This document shows positions 290 to 61,523 of a stretch of 64,000 nucleotides of DNA, piece after piece. How positions within the stretch are numbered: position 1 is the stretch's first letter; every line of letters begins with the position of its first letter. Origin of the DNA: Saccostrea echinata (taxonomy: Eukaryota); NCBI RefSeq assembly GCF_033153115.1, contig NW_026889774.1, positions 5,084,001-5,148,000 of the forward strand, given 5' to 3'. A program made the position numbers and the translations under genes. Under the pieces are notes generated by a model, which had not been told where the DNA came from, did not search any database, and was given only the letters and a program-made list of their open reading frames with translations.

Positions 290-3200
290 TTACGGTTCTC
301 CTTCCAAAAAATCAAAATTAGCACTGGTGACTTCTCCTGTGCTTTTCACGACAGCCTGTACTTTGAGTTCAGTTCCGCCAAAAATGAAACTTGTTGAAAC
401 TTCTTTATCTGACCCGTACTTTGGGAGATCAACCGTAAGTTTTCCTAGATAAGAACTGCCAGATTCGTCAACGAACTCTGGGTCTTCTCTTGTGGACGTA
501 TATACTGGTAACGACACTTTCGTTTGATTTGAATACAGAGGCCAGTAGCTCTTTTCACTTTGAACATCGTCTATTTCCAGTAATTGACCGGTACAAACAT
601 GCTTATCAAACACATCTTTACATTTTTCTCTACCTTCTACCATCTTCTTCTTCGACTCTGGGTGTTTTCTACGATCGAAGGTCGTATTCGTTTCAATGCC
701 GTATGTATATTTTGCGATACGTGCCGCAATAGTGGCCGGTTGATGACCAAATATAACAGCACCTTTAAGGACAGCTAGACCAGCCTCTTGTGGAATAATC
801 ACTCGACTATCGGGAAATTCCTCCCGAATTCTCTTTTGAAGTAAAGGAGATTCCGAAAAACCTCCAACCATAAGAATATTATTTGTGCCTCGAACTCTGG
901 GCGATCGTAGCAACTGTTTAACGTGATTTACCATGCCATCACTGGCTGCCGAAAACAAGTTCACAAAACATGGCTTGTTAATGCGCAGACGATCTCCAAC
1001 CCAAGTTAGATCATCTTTGTATTTGGTTTGGCGAATTTTCTTTTTGATTTCCTCTCCCGATCGCTCTTCGTACAGCTCTTGTAGACTTATTGGAATACGA
1101 ATGGTGATTTTTCCTGGAGCATCGTCTTTAACATTACGTTTTTTAGTCTCAAAGTCTCGGAACAGGTCAATATAGTCTGCAGTATGCGACAATGCAAATT
1201 CTTCTAGCATCCCTCCCCCCACTATCTCCTCCAGCATTTCTTTAAATGACTGGTCGACTCTAGTGCCGCCCCAAGCGCCGCCGCTTGCCTTGTCCAGTTC
1301 CTTCAAAGTTCCGTTGAATTGAACCTCGTGCACTGTGATATCGACCGTACCACCTTGAAAAAGAAATTCAAAGCAAACTAAAGAAAACCAAGCGAAGTTT
1401 AGGGGATTACCTACTCACTTTCTGTCATTGCTTGTATGTAATGATAGTTGTAGTTGCTTCTGAATCTCACTAAATTATAAGAACATAAATTGTAAATTAA
1501 CACTTACTGATAAAGTTCGGAATCAAGAAGGGAAAAGAAAGTTTTACTTCCACAAATACATGCACAATTATTTACTTTTGATACATGTGATTTAAGAAAT
1601 GCGTATAAATTCCAAAGCAAATTCAGGTTCACAGATTAAAATTACTAAGGACTGGATTCCAAATTCCGCCTCAAAAACTTGCTTTTGATGTTTACTATGG
1701 AATCCACTGTCTGGAAGTGGGGATTTGACTAGATTTCATTCTGGTATCCATATATTCACATATTAAACTCATTTCTGCAGAGTTAATTTTTGTGGACTTT
1801 CTATATCTTCCACAGAAGCAATAGCTTACCACCAGCATCTAAAACAAGGTATCGACTGCCAGGTTTGAAAGCACTGATTCCACCCTCAGCGCCCTGTAGC
1901 TTCTCTATAGGGAGATATTTACAAAACAAAGAAGCTGCCTCAGGTTCTAGAGCTATCATTAACTGCACTCGATTTATACCAGCCTAAACGGAAAAAAGGT
2001 GGAAAAAATTACGCACCAATACCAAATATTTAACACAGTTAAAATGATGGTTTTAATCCTGGATTTGCTGCAAAAACGTTTTCCAGCCACTCACCACTTC
2101 TTTTAAATTCGCAATGCTCAACCATTACACTGTGCATTATTAATTATTTTCATTACAATAGTTGTTTTTTGAGTAATAATTATTAAACTACATTAAACGT
2201 GAAAATATGAACTAAGTAAATTCCATTTATGACAAGTATTTCCTCGCATTTGTTTTCTTTTTTATGGCTTTGCCTCCTGAAAATCTTGCTATAAAGACTA
2301 CCTCTTCAGCAGCCTCCCGCATGAACTGTTTTGAGGGGTCGTCCCAGATAGCGGGCACTGTCAGGACCCAGTTGATGTCCCTTGCTTTGATCCCAGCCCC
2401 TCGTTGGTCTAAAGTTTTCAACATATGATCCTTGAGATAGCGAATGGCGTGGGCAAAGACAGTTATGGCTTTCATCTGTTTTCCTCCTGTCATGTCCTTC
2501 AACATCGTGTCTCTTGTCAGCCTCTGAAAAGAATCACTTTGTTCACACTTGGATCCCCAAATTCATATAAAAAATATAAAATTTTAATGAACAGAGGAAT
2601 AAACTATTTTGACTAGTTTAATTTTCAAGGGTCAGACGGCTAAGGGCAAACAATCAATATTTTAGTTTAGGTCATACTCGGTCAGGATCAAGATGGTTAC
2701 GGAAGTCTTGAGCAATTCAATCAAAGAACAAGCCTAGGCCAGTATGTCAAGATAGTTTCTGTCTGTTTCAGTTGAGCCTTTTGATGCAATAACTCAATTT
2801 CTTAACATAATGACTTTATATTCCAGACACAGACTGATAAGGTGAATGGAATGCACATTCGTGTTTTATCATATACTAGTACATGTACAATTATATAGGA
2901 GATACGTGCTCTCTTTTCTGTCAATGATCAAGACGTGGGCGGACTTCATATTATTTATTAATTTATTAGTAAAAATTCATTTTTATAATCACGATAATAG
3001 GGAATAAATATGTTTCGATGTTGTTGGAAGTTTCCTATGTCTTTTTCGTTGCATTTCAAATGACATCGTCTTTGTGGAGGCAGGATGTAACTTCGTGAAC
3101 ACCAAATGTAGTCAGAAAATTAAACTTTTACTTTTTTACCTTATTGTCATGTTCTAAGTCTCAATTTTACGATGTGATTGCATGCCCGGATCTAGAGTGG

Positions 3201-5919: not shown

Positions 5920-6060
5920 CATGTAAATCATGTATACCATATTGATATGCAAACATTAAGTTGTGTTGATTCAATTTTTTTTCTTTAAATGATAGACCTT
6001 AGGGTAAGGATTTGACTAAATTTGGGTATCAATTGTTACACAAATGTAGTGCATGTGTAC

Positions 6061-9933: not shown

Positions 9934-10087
9934 CAGTCAACTTCATTATCTCGAGTTCAATGGGTAAAAACTTCAAAATATCCAAGAGTTTGAGATATTG
10001 AAGGTAAAAATCAGAAAGAAAAAAGTGATTTGGACTTCAAACTCTCTTCATGATATTTGAGATATTGATGTTCAAGAAGTTCAACTG
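9934..10087. mobile_element. Degenerate Tc1/mariner(pogo)-type MITE
   Basis: TA|cagtcaacttc...gaagttcaactg|TA with internal gagatat repeats. Confidence 0.6.
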
Positions 10088-12962: not shown

Positions 12963-12997
<35 letters not shown>

Positions 12998-14037
12998 TAA
13001 CTTTGGCCATGCTGTTCTTTACCAGATTTCCCCCCTTTTAATATACCTACTGTGGCCCCGCCCTACCCACGGGGGTCAAAATTTGAACAATTTATAATCT
13101 ACACTACCCCAGGATGCTTCCATATAAGTTTCAGCTTTTCTGGCCCAGTGGTTCTTGAGAAGAAGATTTTTTCAGATTTTTCCTATATATTTCAATGTAA
13201 AATTTGGATTCCCTATTGTGGCCCCGCCCTATCCCTGGGGGTCATGATTTGAACAATTTAGATTCTACACTACCCCAAGATGCTTCCATATAAGTTTCAG
13301 CTTTTCTGGCCCAGTGGTTCTTGAAAAGAAGATTTTAAAACTTGGATTCCCTATTGTGGCCCCGCCCTATCCCCCCCCCCCCCCCCGGGGGTCATGATTT
13401 GAACAATTTAGATTCTACACTACCCCAGGATGCTTCCATATAAGTTTCAGCTTTTCTGGCCCAGTGGTTCTTGAAAAGAAGATTTTTAAAGATTTTTCTT
13501 ATGTATTTCAATGTAAAACTTGGATTCCCTATTGTGGCCCCGCCCTACCCCCTAGGGTCATGATTTGAACAATTTAGAATCTACACTACCCCAGGATGCT
13601 TCCATATAAGTTTCAGCTTTTCTGGCCCAGTGGTTCTTGAGAAGAAGATTTTTAAAGATTTTTCTTATGTATTTCAATGTAAAACTTGGATTCCCTATTG
13701 TGGCCCCGCCCTACCCCCGGGGGTCATGATTTGAACAATTTAGAATCTACACTATCCCAGGATGCTTCCACATAAGTTTCAGCTTTTCTGGCCCAGTGGT
13801 TCTTGAGAAGAAGATTTTTTAATGACCCCACCCTATTTTTGTCTTTTCTTGATTATCTCCCCTTGTAAGGGGACTTGGCCCTTTATTTTAACAATTTACA
13901 CTCCCCTTTACCCAAGGATACTTTGTACTAAGTTTGGTTAAAATTGGCCCAGTGGTTCTTGAGAAGAAGTTGAGAATGTGAAAAGTTTACAGACGGACGG
14001 ACGGACAGACAGACGGACAACAAGTGATCAGAAAAGT

Positions 14038-14072
<35 letters not shown>

Positions 14073-17000: not shown

Positions 17001-19338
17001 CAGCAGATTCTTGATCTTTGAATCCAATCCTATGGTCACTGCATCCTTATTATTTCCCCTTGATATGTGACTTTTCTAGCAAGATTAAGGAAATTGACAC
17101 ACTGTCTTAAGATACAACAAGAGGCCCATGGACCACAGTGAGCACCTGTCACCATGGCCCTGTTGTACATTCCTATGTAAAACTTTGATCTCATATTGTG
17201 GCCTCACCACCAGGGTCAAGAATTGAACAAATTTGAATCTACACTACTCAAGAATGCTTCCATACAAAAATGACTAATCATGGACTTGCTTTTCTAAAAG
17301 AAATTTCTGAAGATTTTTCAATGTCAGAATATACACTTCCTAAGGAAGACTTCACATAAGTTTCATCTTTAATAATGCAGGGTGATTCTTGAGAAGAAGA
17401 TATTTAAAGATTTTTCTTATATATTTCAATGTAATACTTTGGTGATTTATTGTGGCCCTACATGTACCTCCAGGGTCCATGATTTGAACAATTTAGAATC
17501 TACATTTCCTCAGGTAGCTTCCACATAACTTTCAACATAATTATCTAGTCCAGTGGTTCTTTTAAAGACTTTCTTATATACATTGATCCCTTATTGTGGC
17601 CGTACCTTACCCCCACGAGTTTCACCTTTTCTGGACAAGTGAATCTTGACTAGATTTTTTAACGACCTCACCCTAATTTTGCCTTTTCTTGATCATCTCT
17701 CCTTGGAAGCGGACTAAGTCCTTCATTCGAAAAATTTAAGAATCCCTTTACCATAGTCCAAAATATCTGATGTTTTCCAGGTTTTTTTTCACGATTTTGA
17801 TATTTTACGTGCCAGGAAAACATCAGAACCGGAGCAATTACGAAAACTGGGAATTTGCCGCCTCAATCCGGAGGCAGCATTCTTGGGTTTATTTTCAATA
17901 ATTGCAAACCGAATTAAATGTCAAACTTACAACTTATCAGTAGAACAATTGTTTTAGTACTCACCAACATTGTTTTTATGGTTCGTTTATAAAATATACA
18001 ATCCAATGAAAACATTTTATCAGACTGTTTTGTTTTCATTTTGTGCATTTTAAAATCTTGCAAATCCTGTATTGAAATGTGGAGTGTTGTTTTCTTTTCA
18101 TTGATATTGGTGAGTACTAAAAGCATTGTGCTACTGATAAGTTGTGAGTTCGGCATTTAAATCTGTTCACAAGTATCGAAAATCAACTCCAGTTGGAGAC
18201 GGCAAAATTTAAAGTTTTTGTAATGGCGTCGGTTCTGATGATTTCCTGGCAAGTAAAATATCAAAATTGTGAAAAAAGCTTAGAAAACGTCAGAGATTTC
18301 GGACTACATTTATTCAAGGATGTTTTGTGCCAACTTTGGTGAAAATTGGCCCAGTGGTTCTTGAGAATAAGTTGACAATGTGAAAGGTTTACAGACGGAT
18401 GCCGGACAACAGGTGAACAGAAAAGCTCACTTGAGCTTTAAGCAGGTCCAGTACAATTAGTATATTTAGCTATGTAGCTAAAATTACCTACCGTATCTTT
18501 ATTTACCTACCTCAGGTAGCTTTATTTAGCTACTTCAAGGCAACATTTCACAATTTTGCTTTTTATTTTAAAAAGACAAAAAATCGCAAGTAAATTACTA
18601 ATATTTATTCTAGGTATTATTTAAAAAGCAATCCAACATGTCCAAAACAGAGATAGTTTTAACATTGCTTTTTGAACACTTTTAAGGAAAAGATGTATTG
18701 CCATTGTTTGAGTAACTGTACACTTCCTTGTGTGCGATGAGGCCTGGATAAGTATGATTACTTCGCTTTGTGCTCATGTTAACCAGAAATGGTTTTCTTT
18801 GTTATTTCATTCAAGAAGTAACTGTTTGGTCACAAATTAACTGTTGTATATAGCTCCAAAACTTTAAGAACTTTGATTGAAATTGCGCAGAAAAAGACAC
18901 ATCTCCAAGAGGGATTTTTTAATGAATTGTTTTCAGATGAGTTCAAAGTTGAAGATTATCATTGCATCAAAGTGCATTTTTCTGCACTTTCTGGGGAAAA
19001 AAACTAATTTAAGAAATAAGTTTGATTTAGTAGCTATTTAAGATACTTCAGGTGGGTAAATAAAGCTATGTAGGTAATTCAACCTACGTAGCTAAATCTA
19101 GTACCAGACCTGTTAAGCTCAGGTGGTCTAAATTGTAGCTCACTTGCACTTTGGGTTTGTAAACATTTCAATTTCTATTCAAGATTAACTCTTATAAAGA
19201 AATAACCCAATGTAAAATAATGTTAAACAATATAATACGTAATTACAAAATGAATATTTTAACACAAAAAAATGCTTAAGCGAATTACAAATCCACAATA
19301 CAAAATGAAAACAAACACACGTGCACCTTCGTCGCCAT
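10467..19338 (-). CDS. WDR55: WD repeat-containing protein 55, 8 exons, ~365 aa
   Basis: Exons 19338-19327, 16765-16650, 16343-16158, 14195-14123, 12304-12198, 11880-11781, 11501-11332, 10800-10467 join in frame. Motifs DISFHP, HHKKACRAVRFS, TASKDKS, ASGDDDGCLKLWD, TSGDGTL, WGNISDRFPGH, VGEHDEFPVE, ASCSHDQ, DDFFAGL and an acidic tail are typical of WDR55. Confidence 0.93.
12963..14070 (+). mobile_element. Well-preserved pearl/CvA-like non-autonomous Helentron-type element with five ~166-bp Cg170-like core repeats
   Basis: 5' end aacaagaggcccatgggccacatcgctcacctgag. Core marker gcttcca recurs at 13116, 13282, 13432, 13598, 13764 (spacing 166/150/166/166). (GACR)n microsatellite at ~13991-14018. 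Self-complementary 3' end ...ttgagctttcagctcaggtgagctaaaaa. Lies in WDR55 intron 4. Confidence 0.9.
15305..16204 (-). repeat. 63-bp minisatellite (~14 units) derived from the 3' end of WDR55 exon 3 plus its 5' splice site
   Basis: Plus-strand ttacc (donor) recurs every 63 bp from 15398 to 16154 (13 copies). Minus-strand unit: gatcttaacacaggagcagtcaaacataaaatcaaagctgctcacag|gtaaacactagtctct. Confidence 0.97.
17754..18306. mobile_element. Academ/AcademH-like non-autonomous element nested in the pearl-like element
   Basis: tagtccaaaatatctgatgttttccagg...gaaaacgtcagagatttcggacta with ~120-bp imperfect TIRs. Degenerate 9-bp TSD cctttacca/catttattc. Same family as 7171-7322. Confidence 0.8.
18443..19112. 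mobile_element. Non-autonomous TIR element with 5-bp TSD (TTAAG) and CAGG ends
   Basis: ttaag|caggtccagtac...gtaccagacctg|ttaag with ~80-bp imperfect TIRs. Removing it restores the pearl-like 3' terminus. Confidence 0.8.
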
Positions 19339-19644: not shown

Positions 19645-21620
19645 ATGGGGAAATTAGAATCAAAAAGAGTCGAAGATGTGCAGCTGACCATTCCATTCAA
19701 GCCTTTTTCGGTCGTAACTGTTTCCTTACCAGCGGTTTCATTGCTGTACTGTTTTCTGCATGGAATGATATTCCGGTTTAGTGAAGTCAATGAGACAGTG
19801 TGTCAGGTACTGTACTATGGTTATTCATGCGTAAACTCTTTTTTAATTCATAGATAGATGCTTTGATTTCATAATATGAACTAAAACATTTCCAACATCA
19901 TTGGGTGTGGCACTGTATCTTGACAGTTTGTAAACATGTATCTCATTAAAATTATCTTGCACACAGCCACAGCCGTGAAGTAATTGTTAACATCTGTGTT
20001 TTATCATACATTATACGCTTATTATATGAAACTATTCCATGTGTATTACAGTATACTAAAAAGGTACTGGTTCCTTCAGATTTATAAGAAATACAGTATG
20101 CTATAAATATGAGCACCCTCAATTAAAATAATATTACATGTATCAAAATTATATGCACATATATTATGATTAGCATCAAATAGCTATAGTATACATTTTC
20201 TATTTTTTAATATTGATTTCCAGTTTGGATTTGGGTGTATAATATTTATTGCCCAGACGTTTATCATTTGGCAATTAATACACAGTAAAATAGAAAGTAT
20301 TCTCCATAATTGGCCAGTGCAGTTTAGGGAGACCCTGGTATTCCCTGTGAGTTAGGGGTATTAATGGATGTTTTAGCCATACTTTTTGGTTTTGTCTTGA
20401 ATAAGATATTATGTTATCAGCCACAATAAAAATCTTTGTTTTGTGGCAATTAACATCATTCTGTGTTTATGGCACTTATGCATATTAATTATAATTACAC
20501 TAGTGTGGCTTGGGGAGAAGGAAACTTTATAGCTTGCTCAGCAAATAAGATCTTGTTAATTATTGAAAATAACAGGCACAAGAAAAGAAACCAATAAATC
20601 TAATAATGAAATCTTTAGTTCTAATTTCTTGCTGATTTGTGTACTTAATGCAGGTAATTTTTATGCATTAATGATGAGATATTGACTGTAATTTTTGTAA
20701 ATTGTTGTGCTATAGGTACATGTACTATCATGCATGGAAGATTTTTCTGTGTGTCTAAGCATTTACTTTATTAGTGCTGTGTTATTACAACATGAAATTT
20801 TATGTGATTTACATATATATTCTATGTGTCCTAACAAATTATTCATATAATATGCATTACTATACAATAAACATCATCAGTGCATGTAACCAGGTAATCA
20901 TCAAATCTTAAAGTTTGATACAATATAGTATTAAGCAGCCACAACATCTGTATTAGCCATCCGTTGTATGGGACCAATCAAGATAGCAAACTCTTTTGCA
21001 GGAAATATAGTCTTAAATTTGGGAGAAAAATATGTAAACTTCCATTTGCTACTGCATCCCTTTATAGAACCCAGATAATGAGAGTACTCATCCCTGATAA
21101 TCTTGATAATTGTTATATATAAAAAATAAAAACAGATGTTTATCTTTAGCTGAGAATTGCAAGATGCCTTCTATACTTTGAGTACTTCTTACCATGCTTA
21201 CCTTCTAAAACTAAAAGGTATACATGTGTACTACACATTAGTATATGTTTATTTTTAGTTCTACTGGTTAAAGACCAGAAAAGCCAATGGTAAGGTGTCC
21301 ATCGTCTGTCTGTCTAAAGATCTGTTTGTTTTCAAATTTTCAAAACTCTACTCTTACAGATTTTGTCGCAGATTTCAATAAAATTTGGAACACAAGTAGA
21401 CTACCCTATGATACATAATTCTGTTTATGGTTTTTTTTTATATTTCCTAGAGTGGTGTTCCCATGCTACTAAAACAATATAGAAATTTCTCTGAAATTCT
21501 TTCAAAATACTACTACAGTTTGAATGCAGATTTGATTTCAATAAAATTTAGTACATGTACACATGCAAGTAGACTACACTTGTCTAAGATACATAATTCT
21601 GTGTACATGTATTTGTTTTC

Positions 21621-25666: not shown

Positions 25667-26966
25667 CAGTGGCGCCGCGTTTATCCGGACGCCATTTATC
25701 CGGACGCTTCACCATCCGGACGATATTTTTGGGGAACCGATTTTTTCCACGTTATTTTGTCTCATTAATCCGGAAATTCGCGTTCCGTATCCGGACGGTC
25801 TATTTCTACTACAAAACATAATAGTTCATTCAAAAATGACTCGTTTATCCGGACGGTAATTTTTCAAGAAACGACATTTTCACACTTATCTTGCATTGGT
25901 GTTAATTGTTGTAAAAACATTGGCCATGCAGTCAGTTTGAAGGCGGTTACCTGTGACCTACAAACAATAGCGTCTATAATTAGCGAGTGTTTACCCCACG
26001 TTTATCTCTATTATGAAGCTCAGAGAATTAGCTGACACCGTGCATTAATTAAATAATAATCCGTTCAAAATCATATTGCTAACCGTATATACATCGGTAA
26101 ATTCAGGAGAATTTTGAAGAGTTGTAAATAAAATGAACATTAAATAACGAGCGATTTCGTAATGCTCTTTATAATGTCGATTGCGTTAGTTTAAAATACG
26201 AAGTTCCATTTCTAAAAAACGTAAATGTATTTGAAACGCTTTTTTCCCCCACAAGACAGTATTGAAAGGTACATAACTGAAGAAATATCTCTATTTAATG
26301 CACCACCGTTTACAAACGTCCATTACATATAAAACTGGCGTTACGTACAGAAGTTGATTAGTAAAGTTTTTAAGGTATTTTTTAATGATCGAAATTCAAA
26401 CTTAGCGTCTGTAGAAGAAAATAATATTGATAATCATGAAGATGGCTTTTGTTTACGAATGTTTTTAATACTTTGTTTGAGTTAGCTTGCAGTGTTCAGT
26501 TAATTTTATAGTAACCCTGTGTAATGAATATACGGGGAATATACAGGGTTAGTTTATACTTGAACATTGCTGAACAGTTCTGTCATATCATATGAACTTC
26601 AATAATTATAATATATGGCGAAATAAAACAACAGTAGATCAAAATTTGCTCAACCCATGAAGTCACATGCCAAAGAGAAGGCGAATTAAAAAAGGAGGTC
26701 TCGGCATAAAATTGCCCATCCATTTTTTTTTATTGTGTAAATTACATTTTAATATATTTTTTCATTAATCAATTACTGCTTTTAAAACAATTAACCAAAA
26801 TATAATTCAAAAGTTTTTTTTCTTTGCTGTCACATTTGAAACAAGAATGTGCATATATACATACTTAGAGAATGCTTTTTGAGATGTGATTCAATTATCC
26901 GGATGATTCATTTATCCGGACGATTTCCTTGGGGACAGAGGCGTCCGGATAAACGAGGCGCCACTG
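25667..26966. mobile_element. 1.3-kb non-autonomous Tc1/mariner(pogo-like) DNA transposon
   Basis: TA|cagtggcgccgcgtttatccggacgcc...ggcgtccggataaacgaggcgccactg|TA. Subterminal ttatccggac repeats at both ends; no transposase ORF; retained CpGs suggest it is young. Confidence 0.92.
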
Positions 26967-41288: not shown

Positions 41289-43298
41289 CTTTAACACCCA
41301 TTATATTCTGAAATATTTTAATTTGTTCAAAACTCAGTCGTAATTGTAATCTTTAGAAAAACATATACTGTGACATTAATAACTACACTCTCTGTCTACA
41401 GACTAATAAACTGAATTTTAAATTCCATTTTCAGGTATCAAATTACTTACCTTCCATTAGTTCGGCTATTGGAGGATATGCCCCACAAAAATATATATGG
41501 AGGATATGTATAGCTCTTCATGCTGCACCAAGATTTTTATTTGCTTTCTCATATTATGGCTATTACATACATTTTCATGTTGGAACGAGGAACACTTTAT
41601 ACAAGACCCTTGCAAAGCTCTGTGTTTTCTTACATATAATTGAGAATGCAGCTCTAGTTACTCTTACTTATGTGTCATCTACTGATAATTATGGTAAGCG
41701 GAAGGCATTTGATCATCAAGATGAAGTATATATATTTTTCTGCCCCATCCATCTTACTGAAAAGGAAAATACACCTGTAGTAGATTTTGTCTTTTCCTCC
41801 ATCTGTCCATCTACCTCATATGAATATATCTGAAATTAGACTTTACAAATCTATGGACTCATTTTAGTTTTTATGAGGTAAATCAATAGGAAATGGTATT
41901 GAATTGATGTCACAATAGAGTTAACGTTATATAAAAGGGCAGATAATCCATGACATTGATACTGACAGGACCTTTGTATATTTTTATCTCTTACTTGATT
42001 TTATTGTACTACAATATTCAATATCCAAATTGTAGAAATAAACCAGCTGAAGTTATAAAGCTGTAGATGCAATTTTCATATGTTTAAAACATTCCTGGGG
42101 AAAATAATGATGCCCATGAATTGAATTTAAAACTAATAAAAGGTCTGAATTTGTTCTGTTTCAGCTGTGCATGAGAACATGTTTATCATCTTTATGGTGT
42201 GTTCTGAGTGTTATATGTTGCTTTCCTGTATTCTTTACAAATGGGGTCACACATCCAATGGACGTGCCATGACAAAAATGGTATGTAGATTAGAAATACT
42301 AAGTACACACAGTACATTAATCTCATTTTTCAAAATAGTAATGATACTTGATCATACTTCTTTTTTTTTCTCATGCACTTTAGTCAATTCATGCATTGGT
42401 TTCTATATCATGTATATAATTACATGTACATATTGAATTCAGTAAGTCAGCAGTTACATTAATTCATTATAATGGGATGTTTGCATGAAACAGCCCTTGA
42501 GATAATGTCAAAGTCATCTGAGTTTATGTCTTCTGCTGTTTGTATGCCCACCTGTGGGTTAGTCAGAATAAAATCATTACTTTGTACCTAGTATATATAT
42601 TTATATTTTTAATGCTTATGATTTACACACATTTGCTATTCTGTTTTATCCCCCATATAATGCATATTAGTGATTGGCTAATATGAATATATGCATAATT
42701 TTGATAGAAAAACTCACTGATATCAGAATTTATCTCTCAGATTTGTGAGAGCTAGTACAAGTGTGTTTCTGGATTTTGGGACCACAGATGACTGATTGTG
42801 AAAGAAAAAAAGATTTCTATTGGTAACCTTTGTGACTTAAAATACAATGTATCTTGTATTTTAGGAGGTCATGTCCTACCAGTATAAAAAGATTCTCTTT
42901 GTTTTCAACATTACCATGTTCGTGGCAGCAGTATACATGTTTTTTAGGCATGAGTGGTACTGTGAAACTGGAGGTAAAAAATTTGACATTTATTTACTAT
43001 CAACACTGTCAAGTTAAGCTCTCTTACACTTAATTTACTATGTGTCAGTGTAGGGTTTTATCAAATGATAAGTTTTGAAATTACAACCAAAATAATTATA
43101 TTATTTTATATACATTATATATAGCCTGGTTTTCTGTATGTTTTTTCTTCTATTTCAGTGTATTCCATATTTGCACTGTGTGAATATCTTGTAGTATTTT
43201 CCAATATAGCCTTTCATTACACTGCCAAATACGACTTCTCAGATCAGCAGGTTTTATTGTCAGGAGAAGAGAGTGGGAATGCCTACAAAGAAATGTAA
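40662..43298 (+). CDS. PGAP2: Post-GPI attachment to proteins factor 2, paralogue a, 5 exons, ~255 aa
   Basis: Exons 40662-40805, 41435-41693, 42165-42280, 42865-42973, 43159-43298 join in frame. Motifs STWTHCRVSNYLPSISSAIGG, WRICIALHAAPRF, TYVSS, HENMF, FFRHEWYCETGVYSIFALCEY..VFSNIAFH. Confidence 0.95.
41039..41330. repeat. Tandem duplication of a ~120-bp unit containing a (TA)n tract of different length in each copy
   Basis: aattgtaatatcattttatgac...ccat(TA)n tttactttaacaccc...aatttgttcaa occurs at 41039-41160 and 41159-41330. Confidence 0.9.
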
Positions 43299-46200
43299 GC
43301 CCCATCTCCCACCCAAAGGCTATTTCGGTAATTACTGCTGGAGACTGTGGTGATTTTTTTTTTAAGGCCTTGGTAGAGTTACACTGCTTTTATATAGAAT
43401 TTGTAATGATCTTATTTGTTAGTGTCATAATACAAAGGGGCATACATGTAACTGCATTACTGCTGAAAGAAAAAAAAAATCATTAGAAAGGGACATAACT
43501 ACATTACTGCTAAAAGAAGGAAAAACCATTACAAAACAGAATTAAGGATGATACAAAGATAAAAAGAAGTTTTAATTAGAAAATTTCAATTTTGTATAAC
43601 AGACACCTATAGAAAATCTTGTGTTGTGCTCCAAAATGCTATGGGGTAGGGAACCTTGAGTGGTGATAAATGCAATGTAATACACATGTACTTACACTCT
43701 GAACATTTTGAATTGAAGTTTGAGACATATTCATCTTGTGTTTTCATATTTACTTTAAATATTTCTCAATTATGTATTTCATAAAATCAGTAATTGAAAA
43801 ACTACTTTGTATTTCCTAATATTTTCCAGTTTAGAGAAAATTAATAGTATTTTCCCGACCAACCCTGTTAAGGGACATAACTGTATTACTGCTTAAAGGA
43901 GAAAAATATAATTACAAAGGGGCATAACTGCATTACTCTTAAATAGATTGAATTTAACTTATGTCAGTTGATATATACACTCATCTTTAGACACTTTTGA
44001 TTATCATTAAAACAAAAATGTAATTTGTTATAATATCCGTACATGTATGCACAGGTTTGAAATTTGTTTCGATATGCAGGTTCAAAAAATAAATATGATA
44101 CACTTTATGTTTGCAGGGTATTATCAGTACATCCTGTGTGACTTTTGTGACAGAATTAGTGACCAGAATGGCTGGAATTCTCAGTAGAACCCTCTGTGGA
44201 TATCTGATATAATTCTAACATATCCATTTTCAAGAATTGCAGCCGGGAAGAAAACTTTTCTATTTAAGGACATCTTGGTATTATTATCATTGTAACACAG
44301 CACTGTGCTATACAGCTATTGAAATAATCATTGTGTTACTAAAGGATATTACTAAACATTTTCAGTTTAGATCTGGATATGAGAAACATTTGATTCTAGG
44401 AGTTTATCACTTTGAGAATCAATGACTGACATTTTAGATAGTGTGTTTTCTCTCTGTTTTATTGTAAATGCTTTTCTATAAAGGCTAGTGTTGGTGTAAA
44501 GTACACATTGTAACCTGCTTGACAACTGTCAGTCTTCAAAACTTTACACAATAAAATATAGGACTCAGATATAGTTTGATTTATTAAGATGCCCCCCCCC
44601 CTCCCCAAAAAAAAGAAAGAAAGTAGTAAGAGGTAAAAGATTTTCTAAGTTTATTTATGGCCATATCTTCCTCCTCATTGAAGCAGCTTCTAAAGAGTAT
44701 TAGACATTGTATATATCTCTTTGATAGTTGACATTTGCATATACATGTTTTTGTAAAATTATCTAAATTCAATAGCCTCCCCCCCCCCCCCCCCCTAACC
44801 CCACCAACAAGTCTATCGAAGAAAAACACATTTTTTTCCTAGAAGAAGAAAAACTTGTCTCCATACTGTACAAATAGCTTAATGATAATAGTAAAATAAG
44901 AAGTGCTTAGATAGGGGTAGAAGAATGCCCATAAACAGAGTAATTACTTTCTAAATTAACGTTCTGGAAATCCTTGAAACATGAAATGCCCTAGCTGGTA
45001 AGCGTATTCCCTTTGCAAATTTATATCTCGGGGCATATACTAAAGATATTAACATACCACGTCTCGGGAAGGCCCCGTCCATTTGCAGTAGCACGTGTAA
45101 ACATTTTACTTCTTTTTTTCTGCATAACGAATTTGAAGCAAGGGCTTCAAATTAACGTTCGGCAGTTTTCTTGTCATATTAAGTCCTAAAGCAGGAAAAT
45201 CTAGAAGCAACATTTGTTTAATAATTATTTCTGAATTATGACATGAACCGTACCCCCTTTCGTTCGAAATAATTACGCTTTAAAATTTAATTCATTTTTT
45301 TTTCAAGTAAAACCAATACATGGAAAATTGCCAAACGTTGACTCAGTATAATCACTATCAGGGGAAATCCATTTTTATAACGGTTGCTAGAATTGATGGT
45401 ATACCTATAAATATGTCGAAATTGATGGAAATTTAACACCCCTTTGCCTATTAAAATTCTCACAACGTAGAAAAAAATAAATTACGAGAAATTTACAAAA
45501 TAAATATTTTGAGAGCTAGGTTAACATTTAATTCGATTATTGGAGCAATTTTGGTCGTATTCGGCGCACAGAGTTTAATTATGAAGACACGCTAGAGAGA
45601 ACTGCATGGTAGAGTGCAGAAAACTTGTAGTAATTAAATGTAAGAGATAGATGGCCTATATTTAAAGGGAAAAAATCAGTAAGGTTTTGACGAAATGCAT
45701 TTACCTGAATATTAACTTGTGAATCGAGACTGGCATTATAATTTCAAGAATTAACATACACATCGTGCTGACAATTTACAGTTCTTTGCGAGTCTGTGGT
45801 GGAGAAAACTATGAGAAATGTGCGATTTCATGAATTTCCCCCTCCCTTTTTCTTTCCTAATTTTAGATGATGAAGAGTCTGGAGAGATGGACAGTTTAAG
45901 TCACTATATAATATTCTTGAAATATTTTATCTCCCCGCATAAACAATCTATTTGTTCTTTGATTTAAATATATAATATACACGTTTCATGTCTCGCATGT
46001 TTATGATACGTTAGTTGATGTCGTTCGAAATTCTGTTTCCAGATTCTGATATCACGTTTCATAACTTTCAAACAATTTATGAATATCTCGACATTGAATC
46101 TAAGAAGTTTGACAGACAAGTTTGTACACATCAAGACACATTGTTTTGATAGAGTTTATATATGTGTGTGATTTTAATATAATTTTTAGTTTCAGCACAG

Positions 46201-47268
46201 TAGAAATATGATTCGTTTTTCTGCTAGAATTTGTTTAAAAGCTTCCCTTTAAATCAATTTTGTTTTGATTTTTATCATGCTACAGCTAAAGTGTTTTTTT
46301 TTTAAATAATGAAAAAGGTGAAGAAAATGAACAGTGATCGATCTAAAAAAAAAAATCTACACACAATACAAATATGTGAACAGGGCAAAAAACGCAGGTG
46401 ATAGCGGAATATTTCTACATAAATTAGATAAGTTTACTTGGGTGTTCCAGCTGAAAACAGTTTTGTCTGATATTACCGTTTTGTTTTTTTTTAATAAAAT
46501 TAACAATTTGTTAACATTAGACGTTTGATTAACTTTAGAATATCCTCTTTATAGGAATATATGTTCCATGCAACAATAGGACAATATTTAATGATTACAT
46601 ATACATGTATGTTTATCACTTGTTTAAACAGTTTGTGGTGTTACATATGATTTTATAATAAACCAGAATGCAACAGTAGGAACACATGCAGTTATCTTGG
46701 GGTATATTTATACAAAAATTGGCAAATTTTAGGAGAGCACACCCCCCCCCCCCCGCTCCAACACACACACATACACAATCCATCACAGCATACAATGGTT
46801 TTTGGAAGAGGGTTGGGATTATATAAGCACGTGGCCATCGAAATTAGTCACATGTTTACTTTTCCTATAAAGCTTGGTAATATAATCGATTTTAGTTAAA
46901 CACGTACAGACTTAACTGCAACATATTATAAAACACACATTTCCTTTCATGTATTTCAATTTATGAAGCTGTGAAAATTGATCATCCGCATAGCATTCAG
47001 TATATCTGAAACGGATCTAATCAGTCTCGGTTACATGTACATGTATATTCATGTTATAACTATATATAATGTATAGGATATGTTAGATTTAGAACCCTGC
47101 TGTCTACCTCACGTGGCTAATGATAAAGGATTTTTAAATGTGAGGGTTTCAGAAGTACTTAATTTACTTTTGGACTTATATTCGTGTTTTGGTTTATACT
47201 TAATGTATCTTTAAATTTAAATTTGAAACATTTAGTATGCAGAACAACTGAGTTTACCGTTTTGTGTT

Positions 47269-50200
47269 ATGGCTTATCAAAGTGTTCTCTTTCGGTTACA
47301 CTTTTCAATTTTGAGCAACATTGTTGCCGGACTACCTTTTTTCGCAACGTTATTTTGTGTTATCTGGTCAGTATTATTCAATTTCGAGGAATCTACCGCA
47401 ACACACTGTCGGGTGAGTTAATTTTTATGGAGCGGAGGTATAATTTTTGGTCTCTCTGATCTGTAATCTTACTTGTAACTTTTTTTTACAACATGCAAAA
47501 TTTACCCTTGGCAAAGATAGCTTATGACCAGAAAATGTCTCTTGGCCTTGACCATCAGACACATAAGGTTTGGGCTAAGAGACATTAATGTCATTTGAAT
47601 GGATCAAGGTTACAGTAGATTGCCCGGTTCATAAATGTACTCTTGTTCATGCAGTAGAAGCGATGACAGCTTATACATGTACATGTACCTTGCACAAAGG
47701 TGGGTTGTTTCATGACCATGAATCAATTTGATTTGTAGAACAAGAGCATTTTTGTCTCCAGGTGCTACACTCGGTCATTTGTATTAACAAATTCTTTTGT
47801 AACATTTTCATACATGCGTGTCTACTTTCAGTTTTGTAAGATTCAAACAGTGCAAGTCAAAAAGATGAAAAAATCAAAGTGAACTCTCTTCTTTACGTCC
47901 GTTACACTTGGGGGTACCCATCTATTATCAACAACTCCTCTTTGCCACTGAATAAAAATTACTGACTTTTACAGAATTTTTATAACGCAATGACATTATT
48001 CACCTATTTTACATTTCGATTGGACAGGGTTTACCATAGCAAAATGGGACTTTGCAATTATACTCATATGGGAGCGGGCCGGGGTATCATTTTGTGAGCT
48101 CACGGGCATAGTACCTCTAGTTTGTATATATTTTCAGGTGGCCAATTACCTACCTTCTATAAGTGCAGCCATTGGAGGATACATCCCTCAGAGAAATGTC
48201 TGGAGGATCTGTATTGCCCTCCACGCTTTTCCACGATTCCTGATTGCTTGTGCATATTACCGCTACCACGTGCGATTTGTAGTGGATACTTGGAGCAATA
48301 TTTATACCATTTTAGCCGGGCTATGTACTTTATTACACATTGTGGAGAATTTTGCACTGGTCATTCTAACGTATATATCCTCTCTCGATAATAGAGGTTT
48401 GTTTTACTTTAATGGCTTGCTTGGCCAAGGGTTCAATGCCTGGAGCTTTTCTGATCAGATATTCTTTGTTGTCTGGTGTAATAATTCACGTTTTCTTTTT
48501 TTCTTGATGCTTGTCACAGGGGCGTAGCCTGACTTAAAATTCTAGTGAGGCAAAACTATTGTGGCCGGGGGGCTGGCGGAGCCCTGGTGGGGGGGGGGGG
48601 GGCAAAGCCATCCGACGGAAAATGAATTTGGGAGTTTAGAATGTAAAAATCATACTTCTTCTGGACAGAAATTTCGTAATTTTACCGGTTTCATTATTGA
48701 AGACTTCAGCGTGCATATGATACTTCATATCTCTAAAGTATTTAGTAGAGTATTCAAACTTCTAGGCCTAACATTTTTATTTTTTCCACATAAACTACTT
48801 TAATAGAGCCCGATCTCATGAATTTTGATCCCAAACATATTGATATGAAAGTACAACATTTTATAGATTTGTTTAAAGGTTAAATAAAAACAATTAGTTA
48901 ATAAAACAAATCAAATAGTTTCTGCAATGTATTATCAATGTATGGGAAGGCGGTGGTGCTGAAAAAACTAGTGAGGCAGTTGCATGCCTCATTGCCACAA
49001 TGGAAGCTACGCCCCTGTTGTCATCAAGTTTGCGAAAGTATTTCCCAAAAAATTAATTTATCTAAAGTGTACATGTATCCTTAAATTGGAGTAATGTGAC
49101 AGAAAGAATGAAGCCATCGGATTCTAGAAAGAAATTCATTGTCTTTGGCAAATGTAATTTAATGTTCCCGAACTCGAGTTTGGATTTAATTTTTTGGGGG
49201 TGGGAGGTCTATCTGTCTCTATATGCTTCTCTTTTTTTCATGAATTTAGTGAGGAAACATTGAGACAGATGCTGCCTGACTAGGGTGTACGATGACATTG
49301 AACACGTGTCCTTTGAATATACTTATAACTACTATATTGTACAAACACTTTGAACATTATAACTGATCGATTACACAAAGGTAGCCTATAATCAATGGTT
49401 TTCACATGGCCTTGAATCAAGAAAACTCATTATTAACACAAAGGTAGCCCATTATGTCATGCCACTGACCCATGGTCATAAATTTTGATGTTTCAAGGTC
49501 ACAGGGACTGAAAATGTAAATTCAAATTAAAAAAAATGCCCTTGGCCGTCTTCACATTCTTGTTTTACTTACATATGTTTATTCACCAGTGACAAGAAAA
49601 ACAAGTGATAACACTTTTATATTTACATTTCAGAGATTCATGAGAACATGTTTGTATTATTCATGGTAACATCTGAAATCTACATGCTGTTGACCTGTTT
49701 TCTGTATCGATGGGGTCATTCCGGCAAAGGACGTGAAATGACACCTGCAGTGAGTAAATATTGTAATCTACCATTATACAAATAATCCCAGTATGATACA
49801 TCTATCTTAATCCAGTGTCCGCGAAATAATTCTAAACAATGCCCTGTCTTCACAAAGATACCGGTTGATTCCTAATATTCCACATATTTCATTGAATATA
49901 TGTCAATTAATGGTCATATTAAAGACTGCCATGTCAAAATCTTTCGCTTCAACTTAAATGTAGTAATTTCCTAAGTGCAAATTGTATGCTTTGATTGTCT
50001 AGCAAACTACAGCATTGCTTGAAAAATATCTATTTCAGGAGAAACTGACCGTAATGGTTTTCTTTTGAAAACTAAACTTTTCAGAGAGTCACATTTTTCT
50101 CCGAAAGGTCAGAATCTTATGAATCTCATTTTTAAACATTGATCACCCATAGTGGCCCCACCCAACAGCTGGGGGTCATTGCACGCTGGCCCTCCAGATC

Positions 50201-50461
50201 GAAAAAGTCTTTTTTGAGAAGCATTTATATATAGGTCATTAAATATCAGTCAGTGTGTTAAGAAGTTTTAATAACTTATAATCCATTATGAAAGGAAAAT
50301 GTCCTGTTTTAAATTACTCGTAGATTCAATGTGCAGCCGTTTTAAAACAGTAAAGCGTTTTTTGATAAGCTTTTTTGTTATCATGCTGCTACATTAGAAC
50401 ATAAATTACTTCCGAAATGCACATTTCCTTTAAACCCCCCTCCCTCTTAAAAGTGAGTTTA

Positions 50462-50513
<52 letters not shown>

Positions 50514-51207
50514 AAATTTGCGACTTTCTTCTTTGGACCTACCGGGCTAAGCTGGAGGTCTTAAAATGAATATTTTCCCCTCCCCAATGAAGTGGCGGGG
50601 CCTGTACCGAGATTTCTCAAACAAGCAGATATTGCGGGAAAAACCAAAGATAACGGGTTTGATACTAGTTTTCTCCTATGTTGTCCGTGTATAACTTTTA
50701 CACCATTCCTGCAAATATTAAACAGAATTTTACGTGGGATAATAGCTTGAGGGGGAAAATAGTAGAAATCATTTTTGTTCATGTATTTGAATGGACTTTT
50801 TGTTCTTTTTGCAGGAAACTAAATCCTTCCACTATAAAGTTGGCTTATTTATCTTCAATCTCTCCATTTTCATGGTGGCAGTATACATGTACTTTAGGCA
50901 TAACTGGTATTGCGAGCGTGGAGGTAGGTTCATTTCATTGATATAAATATAAAAGCGGGCACGATGTTTATTTTCGGGATAATTGTTAAAGGTGCTTGTA
51001 GAAAGCAGCTAAATTGATAAAATTTTAAATCGTCATTTTCAGATACGATTGAATTTCTTTTATATTTTAGTATACACTGGATTCGCTGCCTGTGAATATT
51101 TCGTGGTATTTTCAAACATTGCCTTTCATTACACTGCTAAATTAGACTTTCACGACCAAGTCTTGATTCTTGGAGGAGAATCTCATCGATCATCAAAGGC
51201 TGCTTAA
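47269..51207 (+). CDS. PGAP2: Post-GPI attachment to proteins factor 2, paralogue b, 5 exons, ~254 aa
   Basis: Exons 47269-47412, 48138-48396, 49634-49749, 50815-50923, 51071-51207. Exon 1-4 lengths (144/259/116/109) are identical to paralogue a. Motifs STATHCRVANYLPSISAAIGG, YFRHNWYCERGVYTGFAACEY..VFSNIAFH. Confidence 0.95.
48517..49017. mobile_element. Non-autonomous TIR element with 6-bp TSD (hAT-like CAGGGG ends)
   Basis: ttgtca|caggggcgtagc...gctacgcccctg|ttgtca with internal ctagtgaggca repeats. Confidence 0.85.
50470..50511. repeat. Compound (CT)n(TA)n microsatellite
   Basis: Direct reading of the sequence. Confidence 0.9.
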
Positions 51208-52396
51208 CAGATATTTTCCTTAACATTTAACATTGTAAATAAAATAGTTTTGTAAATAAAATAGTTTTAATGTCTCAAAATGCATTTCGTAATTACTACA
51301 AACTTTTTATATGGATTGTAAAGAGGACGCTGTTTTGTGCATTTAAACAACTGAACGGTAAGGGATATTTGTAAAAATGTATACATTACCGCTACATTTT
51401 CAAAATAATCATAATGATTACCGCTACATAGTCATAACCGCTACAAAATAGTATACATTACCCCACATATATAAGTATACATTCTGCTACAATGCCTCGT
51501 ACGTTAGCCAGCGCCCATGCATGTACAGATATAAAGTACAACATAGACATTCATAGGACCAGTTTCTCACCACCAAGATACGAAAGTAGAAAAAAGTTGA
51601 GAAAAAGTGAAGCGTAAATTTATCTCGCGGGAAAAAAATCAGCCTTTTTCTTTATCAACAAAATCAACATTTTTTTCGGGGGGGGGGGGGGGGGTCGGCT
51701 TTCAAATAAATTTCAGCAATTTTGATATATTAGTAGGCAATGGAGCTACCACCTTTTTTTAAACTCTTCTAGGTCTGCATTGAAATAAGGTAATTTGAGA
51801 TGTCCTATTTTTTTTTTTGGTCCTCCTTGAGATAAGGTATAATTTGTAAAGTGCCCCTACCTTATATAAAAGTTCCCTTTAATGTACATAACAGATTTGT
51901 ATACTGTGGAAAAATGCAAAAATGATATTATATGTAGTAGGAAAAATATGCTTCAATATATTGTGATTGATGGTTGTTTTGGGGGGGGTGTATCCATTTT
52001 TAAGCAATACCTTGGTGTGACCTTATAAAATAGTCCAGAGCGAAGACAGAATTTTATTCGATTCTGAAAACGCAATTATATTACATGTATGTGTGAATCT
52101 AAATATACCAGGTATGTAATTTTGTAATTCAAATTTGAGACAAGACTTTAAAACACATCGTTTATTAAAAAACTCCACTATAAAATATTTGGAAAACTAG
52201 ACATCATTGAGCAATTTTTATTTTCAGCTTAATGTACAATAGATTTGTCGTTATGTTTTATTACCAACAGAAAAAATAACTGTTTCTATACATGCTATAT
52301 ATCAACTGAAATTAAACTCACTATGCACAAAAATGCAACGCTTCGAAATACATCCATTAATAAATTTTTTATTCCTATGTGTACATTAAAGTAAGA

Positions 52397-55951: not shown

Positions 55952-56689
55952 TTATCTGTCGTAACAAGAAATCAAGATGTTATCGGAACTCTCATCATCG
56001 GATAAAACGCAAGTTAAGGCCTGGCTTTCCACCACGGAAATTAATGATGGAGATTTGTCAAAGCTTAAAATTATGGATCCTGTCAATGAGTCAGGTGGAG
56101 ATTCAGTCTCTGGATCGTTGGGCAATGAGTCGTCGGTTTCTGGCGGCTGAGGGTGTACCCTATTACGCCCTATCTTCTTTACTCTCTTCCAGGCGTCCCT
56201 CAGCCGCCCGAAAATTCCCTTCCTTGCTTGGTGATCAGCAGGAGCTTGAGACGTCCCTGCAGTCACCCGTGACGAGGTGAAAATTCCCTTCCTTGCTTGG
56301 TGATCATCAGTAGCTTGAGATGTTCCTGCAGTCACCCGTGACGACTCGAAAATTCCCTTCCTTGCTTGGTGATCAGCAGCAGCTTGAGATGTCTCTGCAG
56401 TCACCCGTGACGACGTGAAAATTCCCTCCCTTGCTTGGTGATCATCAGGAACTTGAGATGTCCCTGCAGTCTCCCGTGACGACGTGAAAATTCTCTCCCT
56501 TGCTTGGTGATCAGCAGGAACTTGAGATGTCCCTGCAGTCTCCCGTGACGAGGTGAAAATTCCCTCCCTTGCTTGGTGATCATCAGGAACTTGAGATGTC
56601 CCTGCAGTCTCTGTTGACGGAGCATACACGCTCACTCTATTTCTCCTTCCACGTCTAAAAAATTTCATGAAACGACTAGAAGCCCCCAT
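55952..56689 (-). CDS. Uncharacterised 245-aa low-complexity protein with six 23-aa tandem repeats
   Basis: Uninterrupted ATG-initiated ORF, GC-richer than its surroundings. The 69-bp repeats preserve frame and non-repetitive coding sequence flanks them. No recognisable domain. Confidence 0.55.
   Translation of the reverse strand: MGASSRFMKFFRRGRRNRVSVYAPSTETAGTSQVPDDHQAREGIFTSSRETAGTSQVPADHQARERIFTSSRETAGTSQVPDDHQAREGIFTSSRVTAETSQAAADHQARKGIFESSRVTAGTSQATDDHQARKGIFTSSRVTAGTSQAPADHQARKGIFGRLRDAWKRVKKIGRNRVHPQPPETDDSLPNDPETESPPDSLTGSIILSFDKSPSLISVVESQALTCVLSDDESSDNILISCYDR
56211..56612 (-). repeat. 69-bp coding minisatellite, 6 units
   Basis: cttggtgatc recurs at 56227, 56296, 56365, 56434, 56503, 56572. 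Unit encodes roughly ETAGTSQVPDDHQAREGIFTSSR. Confidence 0.95.
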
Positions 56690-56713
56690 GCTTGTAATTC
56701 CGGGAACAGCACT

Positions 56714-56729
56714 ATTATGACGTCATAAT
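56714..56729. promoter_or_regulatory. 16-bp palindrome containing a full CRE (TGACGTCA)
   Basis: attatgacgtcataat about 25 bp upstream of the orphan ORF ATG; second full CRE at 57054-57061. Confidence 0.45.
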
Positions 56730-58763: not shown

Positions 58764-58862
58764 GGCCTGTTCAACAGAGCGAACGTTCGCGAGCGCTCGA
58801 CAAAATTCAAAATTATACTTCCAACAGAAATGTTGGCGAGCGCTCGCTGTGTTGAACAGGCC
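58764..58862. mobile_element. 99-bp palindromic MITE (Harbinger-like), same family as 28358-28469
   Basis: ggcctgttcaacagagcgaacgttcgc / gcgagcgctcgctgtgttgaacaggcc. Confidence 0.7.
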
Positions 58863-58880
58863 TCTGGTTATGTTATAGAT

Positions 58881-59030
58881 CAGACCTGGGGTCAATTACT
58901 TTGAAATGTAATGAATTAAATTACAATTACTTTGGAATTTTTTACCATTACAATTACCATTACTCTCATTCAGAAAAGTAATTAATTAAATTACAATTAC
59001 TTTGATAAAGTAATGAATTTCATTACACAT
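58881..59030 (+). mobile_element. Probable terminus of a hAT-like element with caattac subterminal repeats
   Basis: cagacctggggtcaattac followed by multiple (c/t)aattac repeats. The matching other end was not found. Confidence 0.4.
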
Positions 59031-61523
59031 ATTTTATAAGAGAAAAACAAAAATTTTATGACCACACAATTTATATCCATAACTTAACTTTCTCACATTT
59101 TGTGATCGATTAATATGCTTTCCCACATGTCTATAAGTCAGAGTGGTATTTGGATTTTGGATTTATTTATCATGTTCATGTAGTTTACCAATCTACAGTT
59201 GACAAAGAAAGTGGATGAGAACATTTTCAATGTTGTAGTTTTGTTCAGTCTCTGATGTTAGTTCCTCTTCTTCTTTTTTTTTAAATAAATGATAAACATT
59301 TCGAACTATATGTTCTGTGTAAAGTGATATTTAATCAACAGATAATTCTATTATTGTAAAACAAGTATGTATTAATAATTTAATTAATTGGCACTTGTAA
59401 TTAGCTGAGCAGGCGTAATCAAGGAAGATATAAATTTAACACGATTAACCAAAGGTGATAATTACTGGTACTTAAATATAGGGTTTGAAGTTAGAGGTGA
59501 CTCCCAAGGTAAAAAAAAAAAATGAATGATGGACGATATATTTACATTTCCAATGTCTTTTGTCCGAGATAAAATTTCAAATAGTAAAAATACTTAATTT
59601 CTACATAAATCTACTGGTTCATCGATAGGCGTGGTGAAAAAAAATCATGTGCGGGACGGGACAAATAGAGACAGAAGCTTGAGAGACTTGTAGCACGTGA
59701 ATTTGCAGAATCAAGAGCATGTAAATATAAGGAATAACTGTCAGTTTTTTTTGTTTCATGACGATGATCAAACGATTAGCTTGCGTGATAATTTTATGCA
59801 TGAACGCCTTCGGCGTTTTTTTTTTTTTTTTTTTTGGTAGTTGACGACCTTTTTTCTTTTTTTTTTTTTGCTTGTCAGGAATTTTTTGGTAGTGCCCCCT
59901 CAACTGTCAACTGAAAAATGTATGGCTGTGCCCCCCCCCCCCAACTGAAATTGCTTCCTACGGGCCTGACAAGTAAATAATATGGAATACCCTAAATGAC
60001 TATATGTAGGTAAACAAGGGTAGATCGGGGGGGGGGGGGGGGCAGGGAGTTCCGTCCGACCCCGGCATACCATTTTTGCGGACAAATCGCATACTTTTGA
60101 GAAATGAACAAGTGTTCATAATATATATTCACAGAATGGGAAGTTTTAAAACCGTCTCCAGAATTCCAAACGATCATAGGTGCTTGAGGACACCCCCCCC
60201 CCTCCACCCAATATAGACCCCCGGGCCTTTTTGACTTTTTTTCATAAACTATCTTTTAGTAACATATTTGTGATATATAATCCACATATAGTCCTGTCCT
60301 CAAGTACCTATGCAAACTATGTTACGTTCATAAACCATTGCAAATATGAGACTTCTTTAAAAAATAATAATTCAATGCTTATGTTAGCATCTTTGAACCC
60401 CTCTTACTTCAGCAATTTTTAATAATATTTTAGAATCCCGTTTTATCCTTTAGATAATTTACAAATAACACTGGAAAATCGTCTCTATCTTCTCATACAT
60501 GTAGCTCTCTCCTGCGACGTTGATACTGGAGTAGCTGCTATAGTTACCATAAAAGAAAACAGATAAATTACTGGAAGGTTTTGATAATCCATTTATATAT
60601 TTTTTTTCATCTGATAGCAATGACTGAAAGGCAGATGTTTAGTTTCCATACTCAGTAATTCTTGCATTCATATGTCGAACAAATTTAGGTGACTAGGTAT
60701 TGTGTGTTATGTGAAAATATAACTTGAAATTGCTTAACGTGCCTTTATCAGGGGGACATATGGTAAAAGTGTCAATATTATCAAGTATTACATTGTTGTA
60801 TACAAACAATACTATTAAAATTGAACTCACATGTACATAAACATGAATATCACGAAGGATTTATTAGATTTCTTGCAAATATTAAATCATATATATTTTT
60901 ACTACAAGTATGCAGATACATGTACATTGTAGCATCGTTATTCAAAGAAGGGGGTTAGCTAGAAAAGTTAGCTAGAAAATAGTTCACAACCCCCTTAAAA
61001 CATTAAAAAGAAAAAAAGAAAATAACTGACCAAAGTCACTCTCTTAGTATTTATTTAATATCCAACAACCAAAGAACTTGATGGGGAAAACTAAAAAAAA
61101 AACTAAAGATGATACAAAAAAAAAAGGAAATGAGAAAATGATACAAACTAACACGGATAAACTTTGTTAATGTCCCTACTACGAAATAGTTTGATTAAAT
61201 ATTGGTTTTAGTTAATTGCAAGTTCGATTGTATATATACTTTTCGAAATATAGTTACACTCGAAAGTGGGCGGACTATCTCGATGTCCACAGAAATATGA
61301 CGGGTTGTTCATAGAAGGCGAGGTTTCGTCGATGCTGCACATGTTATGGACGAATCGAAAAGTAGGACAGAAAGTCAATCAGAGGAATATTGTCTTCACT
61401 CTTTGAGTGATTTAAAGAATTACAGCTACCATAAATAACTATCCTCCACTTTCCCTTGCCTCGTATCGTGTGTTTTGTATGTTATCAGTAAAACGTAAAT
61501 ATACGTAACGAACAATATAATAT

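Follow-up and report, generated by a model that had tools for sequence, protein, structure and literature searches.

TACATGTA in Saccostrea echinata: a very probable excision scar of resident Tc1/pogo elements

Introduction

The transposon Tc1 of Caenorhabditis elegans targets TA, carries CA…TG ends and leaves non-complementary 2-nt 3' overhangs (PMC4490562), and taCATGta is known as one of its rare footprints (PMC3520976, citing Eide and Anderson 1988); breaks in the worm germline are mended by homologous repair or by polymerase theta with varied deletions (PMC4490562). Here we analyse the octamer TACATGTA, which recurs along 64,000 nucleotides of Saccostrea echinata DNA (RefSeq assembly GCF_033153115.1, contig NW_026889774.1, positions 5,084,001 to 5,148,000 of the forward strand; hereafter the window). 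This octamer, in repeat copies often a 6-bp gain at TA, is very probably the standard germline excision scar of resident Tc1/pogo elements with CA…TG ends. The target, the ends and the product taCATGta are those of worm Tc1, and overhangs like the worm's would be formed here as well; the product that is rare in the worm is here, by contrast, the one precise full fill-in product that dominates, is inherited and stands at about 280,000 copies above background. The scar type is thus already known, and its dominance and scale are unreported in the literature searched.

Other transposons and genomes provide further comparisons. Sleeping Beauty, Frog Prince and ZB likewise duplicate TA around the terminal bases of the element and prefer AT-rich palindromic targets, yet they leave 0-3 bp between the TAs (PMC7913693), whereas the 4-bp form prevails here. 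A genome-wide excision survey in rice (PMC4423477) also used alignments to read excision scars, which it treated as a force that acts on genome sequence. The identical octamer is highly abundant in Phytophthora, as motif-1/AM-20, where it is read as a transcription-factor site and the footprint idea was dismissed on the grounds of abundance and conservation (PMC3520976, PMC11134190); the available text of these two papers contains no indel test of the motif. Judged by title, the literature on the whole word TACATGTA deals mainly with oomycete promoters, and no genome-wide account of TACATGTA scars appeared in the literature searched, most subscription papers and bioRxiv supplements lying beyond that search.

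Results

The excess of TACATGTA persists under higher-order backgrounds

Counting along the window revealed 54 occurrences of TACATGTA at 51 sites, three of them doubled:

2880..60924, no strand: field of TACATGTA octamers (counts, shuffles, spacing test)
35958..35971, no strand: double TACATGTACATGTA (direct count)
47032..47045, no strand: double TACATGTACATGTA (direct count)
47674..47687, no strand: double TACATGTACATGTA (direct count)

A first-pass annotation, made from the letters of the window alone, had put the number at roughly 50 against a chance expectation of 2-3; all 16 coordinates and all three doubles that it listed were exact. Dinucleotide shuffles give an expectation of 1.75 ± 1.34 (maximum 8, n=100) and a first-order Markov model one of 2.0. 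At Markov orders 2 to 4 the expectation rises to 3.5, 5.8 and 11.0, so that the excess persists under a tetranucleotide-aware background. The positions are compatible with uniform spacing (Kolmogorov-Smirnov p=0.80, 51 sites).

The window holds 846 copies per Mb, against a genome-wide average of 338 (311,761 copies in 923 Mb, with 6,645 doubles), a 2.5-fold difference. Across 94 unselected 10-kb stretches (940 kb, the sample to which all enrichments below refer unless the window is named), 319 copies were observed versus 36 expected, an enrichment of 8.8x, and the higher-order check proposed in the first pass left the excess standing in the window and in this sample alike. The same sample held 307 single motifs, 6 doubles and no array beyond 2 units. 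Background chance sites account for about a ninth of TACATGTA sites, and across the 94 stretches the motif was associated neither with the CpG observed/expected ratio (rho 0.17, p 0.09) nor with GC content.

TACATGTA is gained at TA in repeat copies

Insertions were polarised only where at least three sister loci agreed, which covered 342 independent events in 244 sequences (402 kb). Ten of 25 polarised 6-bp insertions were TA[CATG]TA, i.e. a change from TA to TACATGTA, a form that would make up 0.02% of 6-bp insertions with random letters and 0.36% under tandem duplication; an adjacent TACATG template was absent for seven of the ten. Among 12 seven-bp insertions, four were TA[CAATG/CATTG]TA and one was TA[CCGGG]TA, and putative fill-in scars of Tc1/pogo elements make up 40% of all 6-7-bp insertions. 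Alignment of the motif to plain TA, as the first-pass annotation had advised, thus uncovered a derived gain at TA with the TA duplicated, seen as a gap of 6 bp or, at locus L104, of 12 bp, where a double motif aligns to plain TA in the sister. In a family of 1.3-kb elements (described below) the majority sequence lacks the motif, which is present in 7 of 30 copies at three sites, two of them 6-bp insertions and one a substitution.

Of the window's own 54 motifs, one is demonstrated as a gain (17459) and one is plain coding sequence:

50884..50891, + strand: TACATGTA within an exon that codes for a Frag1/PGAP2-like protein, VYMYFRH versus VYMFFRH in a paralog, ungapped

Because this site is coding and matches its paralog without a gap, we assign it to background and not to insertion. 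No clear 6-bp gain could be assigned to the sister-aligned motifs at 21552 and 32893. Four transcript runs, which are spliced contigs from one sample, bridge six motif sites (29957, 30277, 30339, 31546, 32694 and 32893), and the listed pieces of these contigs, from a sample whose kinship to the assembly is unestablished, contain no 6-bp gap.

Two other length differences were seen in these transcripts. In contigs of three of the four runs, 215 bases (30138-30352) are skipped and two motif sites with them; the ends of the skipped segment are not GT..AG, and it is possibly an allele. At 28556 one contig has a TTAA added beside TTAA, which resembles the leftover duplication of a TTAA-targeting element.

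Empty, scarred and filled copies of the 17459 site

The site at 17459 lies in a repeat that offers many copies for comparison:

17459..17466, no strand: 166-bp repeat unit with a scar in its core, where CATGTA has been added behind TA and 5 bp are missing immediately upstream
13046..13822, + strand: array of the 166-bp repeat whose cores represent the empty state for 17459 (repeat comparison)

The sister alignments are 1 bp shorter in 172 of 195 cases, matching a 6-bp gain plus a 5-bp loss. The CATGTA insertion after TA that the first pass had read here is therefore confirmed as a 6-bp gain, but the accompanying 5-bp deletion had been overlooked. Across the genome, 31,294 repeat units have nothing inserted at the homologous TA (empty state). 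Among the 100 listed of 114 variants beginning TA-CA[AGT] there are nine 6-bp scars (two of which are tandem neighbours) and three 7-bp scars, the remaining listed rows being mostly point changes.

The filled state predicted in the first pass, with a complete CA…TG element in the homologous TA, was located as well: two of seven fetched candidates are terminal inverted repeat (TIR) elements, of 4,058 and 506 bp, both with CA…TG ends and a duplicated TA. The other five were set aside (one with a 6-bp duplication, one ambiguous, three not insertions). As the empty, scarred and filled states are found in separate copies, descent from filled to scarred is not demonstrated. Two further TIR elements inserted in the 166-bp repeat, L320 and L002, are CAG-ended with 6-bp duplications.

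Resident elements end in the inner bases of the scars

The window contains two elements that had been proposed as Tc1-like in the first pass, of which the first belongs to a genuine family:

25667..26966, no strand: 1.3-kb non-coding TIR element with TA duplication and CA…TG ends, family of at least 40 copies, TA-CAGTGG…CCACTG-TA
9934..10087, no strand: decayed 154-bp member of a dispersed TA-CAGTCA…CTG-TA family, about 70% identity

The 1.3-kb element is a candidate scar-maker, and its family also served to polarise gains; the two ends of the 154-bp element agree at just 10 of 30 ungapped positions. Profile searches of the genome with PF13358 and PF03184 gave 150 scored matches each. Among 30 Tc1 loci, 11 had clean TA-CAG…CTG-TA ends. 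The same ends were recovered at 3 pogo loci out of 50, and TA-CCG…CGG-TA ends at two others; one nested element had TA-CTG…CAG-TA ends, and most other Tc1/pogo loci had no inverted repeat within the sequence examined. One young Tc1 family (98-99.3% identity) retains open frames of 363-381 residues with DD34E spacing, and DD34E, DD29D and DD35D spacings, counted by hand, are all present among the resident transposases, so that the predicted proteins appear suited to move CA…TG elements.

The inner scar bases are the terminal bases of resident TA-duplicating elements (CA, CC and CT ends), and word enrichment is ordered like end frequency: 8.8x for TACATGTA, 4.7x for TACCGGTA and 3.9x for TACTAGTA, the two rarer words matching the rarer element ends. 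Minor scar words are also present in the window, with TACCGGTA at 5 versus about 0.3 expected and TACAATGTA/TACATTGTA at 8 versus 2. De novo TIR scans were dominated by satellites and chance palindromes and were excluded from these counts. Two elements, L190 and L260:2533, have a motif on one flank.

Target preference, putative re-use and decay

The flanks of the scars carry the target preference of the elements: base composition at 400 motif ends correlated with that at 102 element ends (r=0.76 over 16 values), compared to -0.17 to 0.57 for five control words. A at -3 has a frequency of 0.51 in motif flanks and 0.68 at element ends versus 0.36 in background, and T at -1 is depleted (0.19 and 0.09 versus 0.34). 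Each scar would thereby offer TAs that are better-than-average targets (A at -3, G at -1), which would give rise to doubles. Nine of 263 ends of MITEs (miniature inverted-repeat transposable elements; 3.4%) abut a motif unit, and a further unit adjoins 2.1% of motifs; the baseline is 0.39% of TAs, or 0.8-1.7% after weighting. At locus L199 a Tc1 element occupies the central TA of a double, with TACATG on both sides. The earlier proposal that doubles mark re-used sites fits these abutment rates and L199, with slippage as the alternative for doubles.

Mismatches to the motif are biased towards transitions at all four positions, the four transition neighbours being enriched 1.46-1.68x, compared to 0.91-1.33x for the eight that differ by a transversion. 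In the 152 kb aligned from 76 copies of two families, 8 six-bp scars were gained against 2,229 distinct substitutions, about 1 per 280. Setting gain over loss, an arithmetic from 8 events with wide error, predicts 350-450 motifs per Mb, and the 338 observed are thus roughly accounted for without selection.

A second class of insertions is palindromic

A second pattern among the polarised events is a 4-bp insertion that turns XY into XY·rc(XY)·XY, where rc denotes the reverse complement. This form makes up 14 of 37 four-bp insertions (38%) with ten different dinucleotides, versus a chance of 1.8%, or 10.7% under tandem duplication; three of the 14 are ambiguous (two TATA, one TTAA), and a 3-bp analogue is seen in two or three 6-bp events. 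Examples and a possible source are as follows:

L058:1970, L047:2737, L208:3138, L240:4491, L081:5998: XY·rc(XY)·XY insertions in repeat copies
G000:C29, about 41.354-41.367 Mb and 36.711-36.724 Mb (L309-L312, L315, L316): young PF02992 element of 12.8 kb that ends in CCC…GGG and has an open frame of 900 residues

The PF02992 family is EnSpm/CACTA-type, and its two copies are 99.7% identical with 2-bp duplications of TA and CA, so that the genome does contain elements whose 2-bp duplications are free in sequence. For a second EnSpm pair both ends were not recovered, and no CAC-ended element with a 2-bp duplication was found in the loci examined. We give roughly even weight to the view that this class was left as hairpin scars by EnSpm elements whose target duplications are 2 bp long, and to its being something else, for which template switching and polymerase-theta snap-back are the rivals. 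If hairpins on the flanks were opened 2 nt beyond their tip and then sealed through a microhomology of 2 nt, a 2-bp duplication would become exactly XY·rc(XY)·XY. The hairpin (P-nucleotide) footprints of Ac/Ds are likewise palindromic additions copied from the flank; the hAT element Ac/Ds, however, makes an 8-bp duplication, whereas here a 2-bp duplication surrounds its own reverse complement (PMC5873905).

Discussion

The first-pass annotation had read the octamers as Tc1/mariner excision scars, and this reading is supported: sites homologous to the motif are not conserved without indels, the excess did not vanish against higher-order backgrounds, and the filled state was found. In the mechanism suggested by scar geometry and by what is described for Tc1 (PMC4490562), transposase would cut 2 nt inside each end and leave a CA 3' overhang on both flanks. 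As both overhangs are CA and cannot pair, end joining would fill in both and then ligate them into TA-CA-TG-TA, perhaps through the classical end-joining polymerases, sometimes with the addition of one extra base (TACAATGTA, TACAGTGTA). The scars would be near neutral and build up to a balance of gain and decay at about 300-450 per Mb. The 3-bp form TACAGTA is at 1.28x versus 8.8x for the 4-bp form, and the 3-nt fill-in words TACAGCTGTA are unenriched in the window.

Several observations weigh against this interpretation. Worm somatic scars are mostly TATGTA/TACATA (78%, PMC12632400), and the half footprint TACATA, dominant in worms, is unenriched in the window (0.98x). In rice, 94 excisions were found versus 393 insertions and were mostly messy (PMC4423477), whereas here precise scars exceed filled sites, by about 4-6 to 1 (12 versus 2-3) at the one TA tested, and among the repeat copies compared none of the scars could be followed back to an ancestor in the filled state within the same lineage. 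TAGTACTA is enriched 3.5x with no TA-GT element seen, ATGTACAT 3.3x with just 45 of 141 copies overlapping the motif, and the Tc1-family loci L171 and L174, which have other ends, lack a clearly enriched matching word (TATTAATA, 1.19x). One of the five control 8-mers itself reached r=0.57, 58 of the 102 element ends came from a single family, and the gain rate is based on 8 events. Sister alignments were available for only 3 of the 54 window motifs, 17459 alone being clean, and three of the ten TA[CATG]TA gains adjoin an existing unit and are possibly tandem duplications.

These last three gains are what would be expected if a (TACATG)n microsatellite unit were copied, by slippage during replication or from a local template, and the 6,645 doubles and the unexplained excess of ATGTACAT point the same way. 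As the main source, however, slippage is refuted by the missing templates in the other seven gains and by the lack of arrays above 2 units in 940 kb; moreover, enrichment is maximal on the TA…TA register (8.8x versus 3.0-5.1x for other rotations) and unit copying cannot produce the 7-bp forms, which leaves it a very small chance. Point mutation, by CpG decay of TACGCGTA or a change of TACATATA to TACATGTA, does explain one of three motif sites in the MITE copies and the chance coding sequence at 50884, and it suffices for the background ninth of the sites. For the excess it is refuted by the 6-bp gaps, most informative sites differing in length and not in letters, and TACGCGTA is rare (1 in 940 kb), so that we regard this origin as next to impossible. 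A 6-bp addition linked to transposase or repair without a resident element (abortive integration or end-fragment capture, with the same target preference) would accommodate the 12 scars versus 2-3 filled copies at one TA, the missing filled-to-scar lineage, and two families that have ten CA…TG scars but no nested TA-CA element among those listed. On the other hand, the inner letters follow the ends of resident elements and filled sites occur at the same TA, and the scar excess could be accounted for if selection and excision remove long insertions; we know of no reaction that adds 6 bp without full residence of an element, and consider this route improbable.

That selection maintains or spreads the motif as a binding site for a protein is suggested by reports that TACATGTA is a preferred site of the Irx homeodomain (PMC3520976) and is bound by the Phytophthora Myb protein PsMyb37 (PMC11134190), as well as by the six transcript-bridged sites, whose listed pieces have no 6-bp gap. 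The motif nevertheless arises as an indel within transposons and units of satellites, its mismatches are transition-biased at every position, its spacing is uniform, it has no link to CpG observed/expected in the 94 stretches, and its density is already given by neutral gain and decay, all of which makes selection highly improbable as the source; some scars might still have come into use as binding sites later.

Excision is usually the invisible half of the life of a DNA transposon, and a scar of eight fixed letters, present 338 times per Mb, would record hundreds of thousands of lost insertions. As such a record survives the loss of the elements, transposition history and target choice could be counted without them; scars of the XY·rc(XY)·XY type escape word counts. 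The form of the scar points to a germline repair route unlike that of the worm. A 6-bp gain would also preserve the reading frame, adding Tyr-Met, His-Val or Thr-Cys. A TACATGTA that emerges from motif discovery is not necessarily a selected regulatory site, and scars offer a route by which such sites could originate. Only tentatively, and with more doubt than confidence, do we extend this to a wider picture, in which cut-and-paste excision would act in this genome as a precise and major source of germline mutation by two chemistries (fill-in for Tc1/pogo, hairpin for EnSpm-type elements), its scars would far outnumber the elements and serve as a neutral clock, classical fill-in joining would set it apart from the worm, some 300,000 Irx-type sites would have been seeded, and the Phytophthora 'promoter motif' would perhaps share this origin.

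Other features of the window

The genes in the window include WDR55, ATG13 and members of the Frag1 family. At least three tandem Frag1/PGAP2-like paralogs are present (22215-24529, 41357-44369 and 47994-51213), two of them with spliced transcript support, and on the minus strand a 256-residue open frame (55952-56722) holds a 69-bp tandem repeat.

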